Positions 29,063 through 29,608 of a stretch of 64,000 bases of DNA are shown piece by piece. Position numbers and translations under genes: made by a program. The stretch comes from Fibrobacteria bacterium (lineage in GTDB: Bacteria > Fibrobacterota > Fibrobacteria > UBA5070): NCBI GenBank assembly GCA_035913415.1, contig JAMIIV010000004.1, positions 57,767-121,766 of the forward strand. Direction: 5' to 3'. Positions within the stretch are counted from its first letter, which is position 1. Every line of letters starts with the position of its first letter. The notes beneath the pieces were generated by a model. That model was not told the origin of the DNA. It worked only from the letters and a program-made list of their open reading frames with translations, and ran no database searches.

Positions 29063-29260
29063 GGGACTAGAAACTAGTGTAAAGTGCCGGTGAAAACTGC
29101 CCTCGGATCGTGTCGAAGAGCCCATGAAAAGAGGGATCGCGCGGTCTGTTTTCGGGTGTCCCACGGGGTGTGCGCGCGGCCTCGGACCGATGGCCACCCC
29201 TCTGAGAAATTTCGGCGACGCAGACGACTCGACAAGGCCCCGACCGATCCGCATCTCCCC

Positions 29261-29292
29261 AAAACAAAAACGGGAACCCCGCAGGATTCCCG
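29261..29292 (-). terminator. rho-independent terminator (minus strand) inside repeat copy 1: 9-bp stem, UGCG loop, UUUUUGUUUUGGGG
   Basis: Minus-strand read: CGGGAATCCTGCGGGGTTCCCG followed by TTTTTGTTTTGGGG. Confidence 0.55.
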
Positions 29293-29408
29293 TCTTCACC
29301 ACACCCTTCGAGCTTTCGGTTCCGGTGGATGCAGACGACCCGCCCCGACCCCCGAAGGCGTCCGCTTCGGGACAGCGAGCGGGGGAGGAAGGGGAGTATG
29401 CGCCACCG
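29262..29408 (-). ncRNA. candidate structured small RNA (copy 1), duplicate of the 29461..29608 element
   Basis: Same organisation as copy 2 with compensatory or loop-only changes. Hypothesis only. Confidence 0.25.
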
Positions 29409-29460
29409 ACCCCAAAAAGCGGTTCCGGCGGATGGCGACGACTCGACAACGCCCCGGCCC

Positions 29461-29491
29461 AAACAAAAACGGGAACCCCATAGGATTCCCG
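29461..29491 (-). terminator. rho-independent terminator (minus strand) inside repeat copy 2, first terminator after lpdA
   Basis: Minus-strand read: CGGGAATCCTATGGGGTTCCCG followed by TTTTTGTTTGGG. Same stem as copy 1 with loop UAUG. Confidence 0.55.
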
Positions 29492-29608
29492 AAATCACCG
29501 GACTCTTCGAGCTTTCGGTTCCGGTGGATGCAGACGACCCGCTCCGACCCCCGAAGCTGTCCGCTTTGGGACAGCGAGCGGGGGAGGAAGGGGAGTATGC
29601 GCCACCGG
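29461..29608 (-). ncRNA. candidate 3'UTR-derived/structured small RNA (copy 2) carrying CCCCUUCCUCCCCC anti-Shine-Dalgarno motif
   Basis: Minus-strand transcript: ...CAUACUCCCCUUCCUCCCCCGCUCGCUGUCCCAAAGCGGACAGCUUCGGGGG... ending in the terminator. No plausible coding frame. Hypothesis only. Confidence 0.25.

Follow-up and report, generated by a model that had tools for sequence, protein, structure and literature searches.

A family of long hairpins behind genes of uncultured Fibrobacteria, present as two tandem units between lpdA and icd

ERIC and Correia elements are imperfect palindromes of approximately 100 to 150 bp that lie in transcribed intergenic regions, have a sequence conserved between genera and are present in a low to moderate number of copies, some with internal insertions. 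Folded within mRNA, they influence its processing. Small RNAs (sRNAs) of the SdhX, CpxQ and GlnZ type come from the 3' ends of metabolic gene mRNAs, with which they have an intrinsic terminator in common. REP elements and REPINs are extragenic hairpins of approximately 100 nt that have two conserved arms on either side of a variable spacer and show compensatory changes; they are often clustered or in tandem and often lie at the 3' ends of genes (PMC3116915). Features of each of these systems are found in the 556-nt spacer between lpdA and icd on a 64,000-nt stretch of DNA from a Fibrobacteria bacterium (contig JAMIIV010000004.1; the whole stretch is referred to as the window). The spacer holds two modules of approximately 199 nt, each made up of an irregular RNA hairpin of approximately 110 nt, a 9-bp intrinsic terminator and, last, a short remnant that resembles an arm. 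Hairpins of this kind make up a dispersed and uncatalogued family, which the sampling places in a single clade of uncultured, high-GC Fibrobacteria.

The two modules form a direct repeat of 159 nt (29259-29417 and 29458-29616) with a spacing of 199 nt and 89% ungapped identity in a repeat search; blastn aligned the two units at 91.3% identity across 150 nt. This agrees with the initial annotation, made from the sequence alone, which had reported two direct repeats of this spacing and approximately 91% identity, non-coding and on the strand that is sense for both lpdA and icd (the minus strand). Three 30-nt probes taken from the repeat unit each have 2 exact matches in the 64 kb, against 0 expected. 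The repeat, which has two copies only, was not reported by TRF. Open reading frames (ORFs) spanning it have no Pfam match, and a conserved antisense peptide was rejected because the antisense ATG that follows GGAGG reads into locus-specific flanks.

In unit A the long hairpin, which is also detected as an inverted repeat, occupies 29508..29621 on the minus strand (minimum free energy -74.1 kcal/mol, z = -8.59 against shuffled sequences). It is closed by 16 contiguous pairs (CUUUCGGUUCCGGUGG/CCACCGGAACCGAAAG), which a UGA/UCG extension past a 1-nt mismatch brings to 19, and the lpdA stop codon UGA (29621-29619) is thereby paired. Next comes a conserved, irregular middle helix with 5' arm GCGCAUACUCCCCUUCCUCCCCCGCUCG and 3' arm CGGGGGUCGGAGCGGGUCGUCUGCAUCC; on one side GCA, AC, CCC, CUUC and CCCCCG pair, between small conserved internal loops, with CGGGGG, GGAG, GGG, GU and UGC on the other. 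The apical stem-loop is GCUGUCC-CAAAGC-GGACAGC. Unit B (29312..29420, minus strand; -57 kcal/mol, z = -1.85) has the same core with a degenerate closing stem. Its apical stem, GCUGUCC/GGACGCC, has one mismatch and one wobble, and this is the second stem in which a mismatch in one copy had been noticed earlier (GGACAGC in unit A, GGACGCC in unit B).

A C/U tract to which the initial annotation drew attention, CAUACUCCCCUUCCUCCCCC, is indeed present in both units (29599-29580 and 29400-29381). It is not free, however: folding the sense strand gives a stable hairpin in which the tract is the 5' arm of a helix with GGGGGUCGG(A/G)GCGGG as its partner, not a single-stranded segment. The structured part of the module also begins earlier than was thought, at the lpdA stop codon (29621) and not at 29608.

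A terminator begins approximately 17 nt past each hairpin. Terminator A (29460..29491, minus strand; terminator scan; fold -21 kcal/mol) reads CGGGAAUCC-UAUG-GGGUUCCCG + U5GU3 from 29491 to 29460 and has the tail UUUUUGUUU. Terminator B (29261..29292, minus strand; fold -22.3 kcal/mol, z = -4.5) reads CGGGAAUCC-UGCG-GGGUUCCCG + U5GU4 from 29292 to 29261 and has the tail UUUUUGUUUU. Scan and folds thus bear out the 9-bp stems, identical between units and with different tetraloops, that had been described. Both are textbook GC-rich stems followed by a U tract; the long hairpin has no U tract and is thus not an intrinsic terminator. To the unit as first drawn must be added a 3'-arm-like remnant of approximately 40 nt after each terminator. 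The first (29420..29459, minus strand; …GUCGAGUCGUCGCCAUCCGCCGGAACCG) lies within the duplicated unit and was found by alignment and by the direct-repeat families D2 and D3, and the second (29215..29259, minus strand; GGUCGGGGCCUUGUCGAGUCGUCUGCGUCGCCG) by reading of the sequence and by the D3 family at 29223-29245.

That the hairpin is dispersed was established from loci fetched from other assemblies (designated L001 onwards). When GTDB species genomes were scanned with a 20-mer from the 3' arm, 11 loci matched; three of these are true copies, all in metagenome-assembled genomes (MAGs) of Fibrobacteria, and the other eight are chance matches in unrelated phyla. A metagenome scan with an independent pattern from the 5' arm gave 5 further loci. 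A covariance model, R1, built from 10 copies recovers all 10 at 110-138 bits, with unit A of the window at 138 bits and unit B at 120.8 bits. R1 further detects two diverged copies, one behind eno (L017 6458-6617) and one behind a sigma-factor gene (L027 4303-4441), as well as lpdA copies in L024/L025 and L027/L028. When the window itself was searched with R1 free of filters, nothing else scored above 13 bits, which corresponds to one locus per 64 kb; pgk, eno, pyk, carB and argJ do not lie in the window. Searches of viral contigs, phages and plasmids for the element gave no match, and neither did blastn against 5,426 complete E. coli genomes. Looking for the unit in other genomes of the lineage, as the initial annotation had proposed, therefore yields a family behind many unrelated genes, but the tandem state at lpdA is found only in the window and L001.

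Nine distinct contexts are represented, and in all nine the element runs in the same direction as the gene upstream. On the basis of Pfam matches, copies follow lpdA (window, L001, L024/L025 and L027/L028), pgk (L011 and L017/L022), eno (L017, a diverged copy), pyk (L019), carB (L020), argJ (L015), a sigma-70-family gene (L027, also diverged) and the gene for a secreted protein with a CarboxypepD_reg domain (L023). In the ninth context the copy follows a tRNA-Leu(UAA) gene (L021) identified with ARAGORN. In full-consensus copies behind protein genes the predicted helix extends at least as far as the final base of the stop codon, whether this is UGA, UAA or UAG. The exception is the diverged eno copy, in which the helix begins only past the stop, while the tRNA-Leu copy begins approximately 20 nt past the tRNA. 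Downstream genes are convergent in L015, L024 and at the eno copy of L017; in L023 the next gene begins approximately 50 nt past the element. Because of the shared orientation and the convergent downstream genes, the element is tied to the 3' end of the gene before it and not to the gene that follows.

An intrinsic terminator follows many copies. Terminators are unrelated between loci except where there has been local duplication; the pgk and eno copies of L017 have approximately 260 nt in common, terminator included. Several members (L023, L015, L024) have no nearby terminator or are intercistronic. Some of these neighbourhoods carry further repeats: downstream of family members, L011 7000-7240, L015 3100-3390 and L027 11520-11900 contain intergenic repeats and small hairpins with a GCTTCGCTG(C)GC motif, possibly members of a second family of repeats.

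It is clear that structure has been under selection, as the initial annotation had proposed from the pattern of differences between the two units. In the 11-copy model alignment (an earlier version had 9 copies), 95.7% of 397 cells are standard pairs, compared with 42-51% once the 3' partners have been displaced by 1-3 columns. Changes on both sides are seen in 12 pairs (41 cells), and the covariation score is 0.322, against 0.122 ± 0.015 for shuffled alignments (reached in 0/500). Covariation is mainly in the closing and apical helices, and 11 pairs of the middle helix are invariant. Closing stems are wholly different in sequence between loci, yet still paired: the outermost pairs are, for example, ACGUU/AACGU, CCUGAAU/AUUCAGG, AAACG/CGUUU or, in the window, the CUUUCGGUUCCGGUGG/CCACCGGAACCGAAAG stem. 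The eno copy has GGACC/GGUCC in place of CCCCC/GGGGG. Sense-strand RNA is favoured as the selected form because G.U pairs exceed A.C pairs (24 against 5 cells in the nine-copy alignment), because pairing is higher in the sense than in the antisense direction (96.6% against 90.9%, for a structure itself derived from the sense-strand fold), and because exchanges of U.G to U.A and of U.G to C.G are present among copies.

The sequence of the arms is conserved as well. The 28-nt arms of unit A are 89-96% identical to those of the copies behind pgk, pyk, argJ and carB and of the copy in L023, and this includes whichever arm had played no part in finding the copy concerned. Between the same genomes third codon positions are 65-73% identical (81% for the close pair of window and L001) and flanking non-coding DNA approximately 50%. 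More diverged copies are the lpdA copy of L027, with arms 75-79% identical to those of unit A, and the eno and sigma-factor copies. The pgk copy of MAG HK-STAS-FIBR-1 (L011) has arms 96% identical to those of unit A, whereas the lpdA copy from that MAG (L024) reaches 89%. This fits purifying selection towards a consensus, and it also fits a recent spread, or gene conversion, from one master copy. Most members lack the CCUCC pentamer and have CCUUCC (L011, L019 and L023), CCUCAC (L015 and L020) or CCGUCC (L017) in its place. The most conserved bases pair with each other, leaving no free single-stranded seed.

On the features tested, membership of the REPIN, MITE (miniature inverted-repeat transposable element), ERIC and Rfam families fails, and the family was previously uncatalogued. 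Whereas REPIN arms are palindromic, here one arm is C/U-rich (GCGCAUACUCCCCUUCCUCCCCCGCUCG) and the other G-rich (CGGGGGUCGG(A/G)GCGGGUCGUCUGCAUCC), and neither is self-complementary. REPINs are placed without orientation bias at tens to hundreds per genome, in contrast to the co-oriented, low-density copies described here; no RAYT gene is among the called genes of L001-L007 and L024-L031, and the closing stem, which takes in the stop codon, differs from locus to locus. Internal insertions like those of ERIC and Correia elements occur in unit B of L001 and as an apical expansion in L017, but the element has no sequence similarity to E. coli genomes by blastn, belongs to another phylum, shows no TA target duplication or conserved terminal repeats, and has a strict orientation and abutment to the stop. 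Unlike in a MITE, the outermost pairs differ from locus to locus and no direct flanking duplications are visible. In the window, Rfam 15 gave no match at the gathering score. At E ≤ 10 the spacers of the window and L001 gave only chance matches of 12-19 bits to models of microRNA precursors, frameshift elements, sRNAs and long non-coding RNAs, and at E ≤ 0.05 there was no match in L017, L024, L027 or L019. An integron attC site was rejected, as the element ends have no R''/R' cores (RYYYAAC … GTTRRRY) and the hosts are single housekeeping genes. SECIS elements and group II intron fragments were likewise rejected in view of the varied stops (UGA, UAA and UAG), the housekeeping hosts and the lack of an Rfam intron match.

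The reading that we favour, as probable though far from secure, is of a REP- or ERIC-like structured repeat of the 3' untranslated region (3'UTR) that acts in cis on the upstream mRNA and has been duplicated locally at lpdA, with terminators that insulate icd. The hairpin would be co-transcribed with the upstream gene, in sense orientation, as part of its 3'UTR, where it could form a barrier to 3'-to-5' exonucleases or a processing site for RNase III. Since the base of the helix lies at the stop codon, a ribosome would have to melt it in order to terminate, possibly linking the fate of the mRNA to its translation. In an E. coli study, REP elements within approximately 15 nt of a stop codon reportedly impede termination. 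mRNAs containing REP elements, being structured substrates, require RNase R or PNPase for their degradation (PMC12320835). The family would spread by duplication or transposition together with neighbouring sequence. Perfect outer stems specific to each locus would be hard to obtain by point mutation and may arise through template switching at replication, a documented process by which stems are created and made perfect in one event and quasi-palindromes of highly transcribed DNA are lengthened (PMC8794818, PMC3820800). In the window, unit A, beside the stop codon, would be maintained, unit B would be a decaying duplicate, and the two terminators would end lpdA transcription ahead of icd. The double terminator that had been offered as a safeguard of icd against read-through from lpdA is thus structurally correct, but it is a by-product of duplication, relatives having one module or none.

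If this reading holds, an uncultured clade of high-GC Fibrobacteria would have its own counterpart of REP and ERIC, with a strict geometry (sense orientation, helix from the stop codon) and a bias towards genes of glycolysis and the tricarboxylic acid (TCA) cycle. The family would supply a clean RNA motif that can be aligned and used to annotate these MAGs in the manner of Rfam, and a natural system in which to study the part of stop-overlapping 3'UTR hairpins in termination, ribosome recycling and mRNA decay. It would also be a case of long stems that stay paired while their sequence turns over fully between close relatives. The window itself would represent a local duplication of a 3'UTR module with two predicted terminators, and not evidence for an sRNA directed against Shine-Dalgarno (SD) sequences.

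Several points weigh against the favoured reading. The family was surveyed in fetched loci of 8-21 kb, which limits any estimate of copy number per genome, and the apparent enrichment for genes of glycolysis and the TCA cycle comes from about 9 loci. The copies were found by exact arm patterns, which inflates the apparent conservation of the arms, and the alignment behind the pair counts was fitted to the model. In most copies the reverse complement has a slightly lower free energy by RNAfold, so that energy alone leaves the strand unfixed. Transcription, role and spread of the element are inferred from sequence. Finally, a selfish repeat would account equally well for the patchy distribution and for the decay of some copies (unit B, the eno copy and the remnant in L026).

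Such a purely selfish element, similar to a MITE or REPIN and moved in trans by a transposase encoded elsewhere, is a possible though unlikely explanation; the position at the stop codon would be a tolerated or targeted insertion and the tandem pair debris. The element is patchy at lpdA among close relatives, where it may be present, a remnant or absent, copies with near-identical arms lie at non-orthologous loci (the closeness of unit A to the pgk copy being an instance), some copies are decaying or bear insertions, and conserved arms, a variable spacer and compensatory changes match the description of REPINs (PMC3116915). Passive tolerance, however, predicts neither the shared orientation in 9/9 contexts nor the abutment of protein-gene copies to the stop. 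Direct target-site duplications are not visible, the outermost pairs are locus-specific inverted repeats and not conserved terminal inverted repeats, and the arms are not palindromes. There is no transposase among the called genes of L001-L007 and L024-L031, and one locus per 64 kb is a low copy density.

A stronger form of the cis-acting reading is quite doubtful. It would make the hairpin a control element that sequesters stop codons and whose invariant arms are bound by an RNA-binding protein or RNase, coupling mRNA decay or processing to translation for a group of genes of central carbon metabolism and biosynthesis (pgk, eno, pyk, lpdA, carB and argJ), with closing stems generated by template switching.

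One of the two readings in the initial annotation was an SdhX-like sRNA, here taken as processed from the 3'UTR of the lpdA mRNA as hairpin plus terminator and pairing in trans through its C/U tract with ribosome-binding sites. In build the module resembles such an sRNA, with a Rho-independent terminator coming after a structured body where the mRNA ends, and arm sequence is kept beyond the needs of pairing. Targets exist too, since GGAG or GAGG precedes 24 of the 51 called genes in relatives; an argument against sRNAs from a lack of SD usage in the lineage was dropped for that reason. Nevertheless, this origin is improbable. The tract is fully paired in a helix of -57 to -76 kcal/mol, CCUCC is not kept across the family and a conserved single-stranded seed is lacking. 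In contrast to sRNAs of the SdhX type, the element occurs in multiple copies behind unrelated genes and often without a terminator, several members having none nearby or being intercistronic; where terminators are present they vary, and conservation is confined to the hairpin. An SD sequence is absent from icd itself. As the hairpin is dispersed, its tract paired, CCUCC unconserved and a seed absent, the 3'UTR repeat is preferred to the anti-SD reading.

Function at the level of DNA, as a cruciform or single-stranded hairpin for protein binding, recombination or replication, with an orientation that follows replication or transcription, is very improbable. The reverse complement folds as well or better, and the perfect outer palindromes could come from template switching (PMC8794818, PMC3820800), but both the preponderance of G.U over A.C and the exchanges of U.G to U.A and to C.G are peculiar to RNA of the sense strand, and the strict relation to the stop codon points to a constraint on RNA or translation. 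A tandem riboswitch or attenuator leader controlling icd, which the structured domain and terminator of each unit upstream of icd superficially resemble, can be set aside, being contradicted by the synteny that ties the element to the upstream gene: icd orthologues at 89-90% identity have other neighbours and no element, the element stands behind lpdA without icd (L024 and L027) and before convergent genes elsewhere, a promoter-like box lies 6 nt before the icd ATG, and Rfam gave no match.

The history of the element at lpdA can be followed through relatives of decreasing similarity. In L001, where icd is 94% identical, the order lpdA, spacer, icd is the same and there are two units, of which unit B has insertions of approximately 50 and 60 nt, one in each arm. 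L024 (lpdA 95% identical), from the same MAG as L011, has a single copy with another closing stem (GACAAGCCGC…/…GCGGCUUGUC) and no icd downstream. L026 (lpdA 91%) has a 46-nt spacer that opens with 17 nt of the element's 5' flank and is apparently a deletion remnant, L027 (lpdA 85%) has one copy, and L029 and L030 (lpdA 83%) have no element, L029 having a plain terminator 22 nt past the stop. Upstream of icd orthologues at 89-90% identity are other neighbours, without a trace of the element. Since relatives show a single copy, a remnant or none, the element was gained at lpdA within the clade. The tandem state is, to judge from these comparisons, a local duplication limited to the lineage of the window and L001, and unit B is decaying in both, with a degraded closing stem in the window and insertions in L001.

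Several of these relatives have further peculiarities. The two insertions of L001 (5445-5495 and 5530-5590) each have a hairpin of their own, such as GGCACCGGCC-CTAA-GGCCGGTGCC. The spacer of L026 (3192-3237) begins with GATCCGGCTGCGGGCGC, which matches the 5' flank of the element, and is probably not a virgin empty site. Directly downstream of the lpdA-associated element of L024 (11520-11760; MAG HK-STAS-FIBR-1) lie tandem GC-rich units of approximately 60 nt (…GGTGCGAGGGCGGCGGGGCTGGGCCTCGGCGCTGGAGCGCGAGGCGGA…). In L027 (4303-4605) the diverged sigma-gene copy is itself tandemly duplicated, the second copy being partial and followed by a strong terminator (AGACACCCGTCGGGGTGTCTGTTTTTGTTTT); tandem duplication of the element is thus recurrent.

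The upstream gene in the window, lpdA (29619..31013, minus strand), encodes a dihydrolipoyl dehydrogenase of 464 amino acids with matches to Pfam Pyr_redox_2, Pyr_redox and Pyr_redox_dim, and its translation is 95% identical to a protein listed as 'dihydrolipoyl dehydrogenase [Fibrobacteria bacterium]'. The downstream gene, icd (26843..29062, minus strand), encodes a monomeric NADP-isocitrate dehydrogenase of 739 amino acids (PF03971, 1257 bits), whose homologues assign the window to uncultured Fibrobacterota. A box, TAGTTTCT, similar to the -7 promoter box of Bacteroidetes (TAnnTTTG), lies at 29069..29076 (minus strand), 6 nt before the icd ATG, and is also present upstream of icd in L001 (5864-5880). 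A scan for sigma-70 promoters found nothing at the icd box. Together, the box and the missing SD suggest that icd may have its own promoter, with a very short leader. The same motif, as TAGTTTG, precedes a PPK2 gene in L027 (12060-12081), and TAGTTTCT-type boxes suggest that the leaders of some genes are very short or missing.

Long hairpins at 3' ends may be frequent in the genome of the window. At 49756-49819 on the plus strand, approximately 50 nt past the stop (49701-49703) of a methyltransferase-like ORF, is a long hairpin with 24-nt arms and one 2-nt mismatch (CCGGTGGTCGAGCTTGTCGAGACC / GGTCTCGACAGGCTCGACCACCGG); it is unrelated in sequence to the lpdA element (12.9 bits with R1). TRF reported a 33-nt repeat in two copies at 43826-43890 and a short tandem repeat of 12/24 nt (AGCAAGGCCTTG…) with 72-81% matches at 62377-62444.

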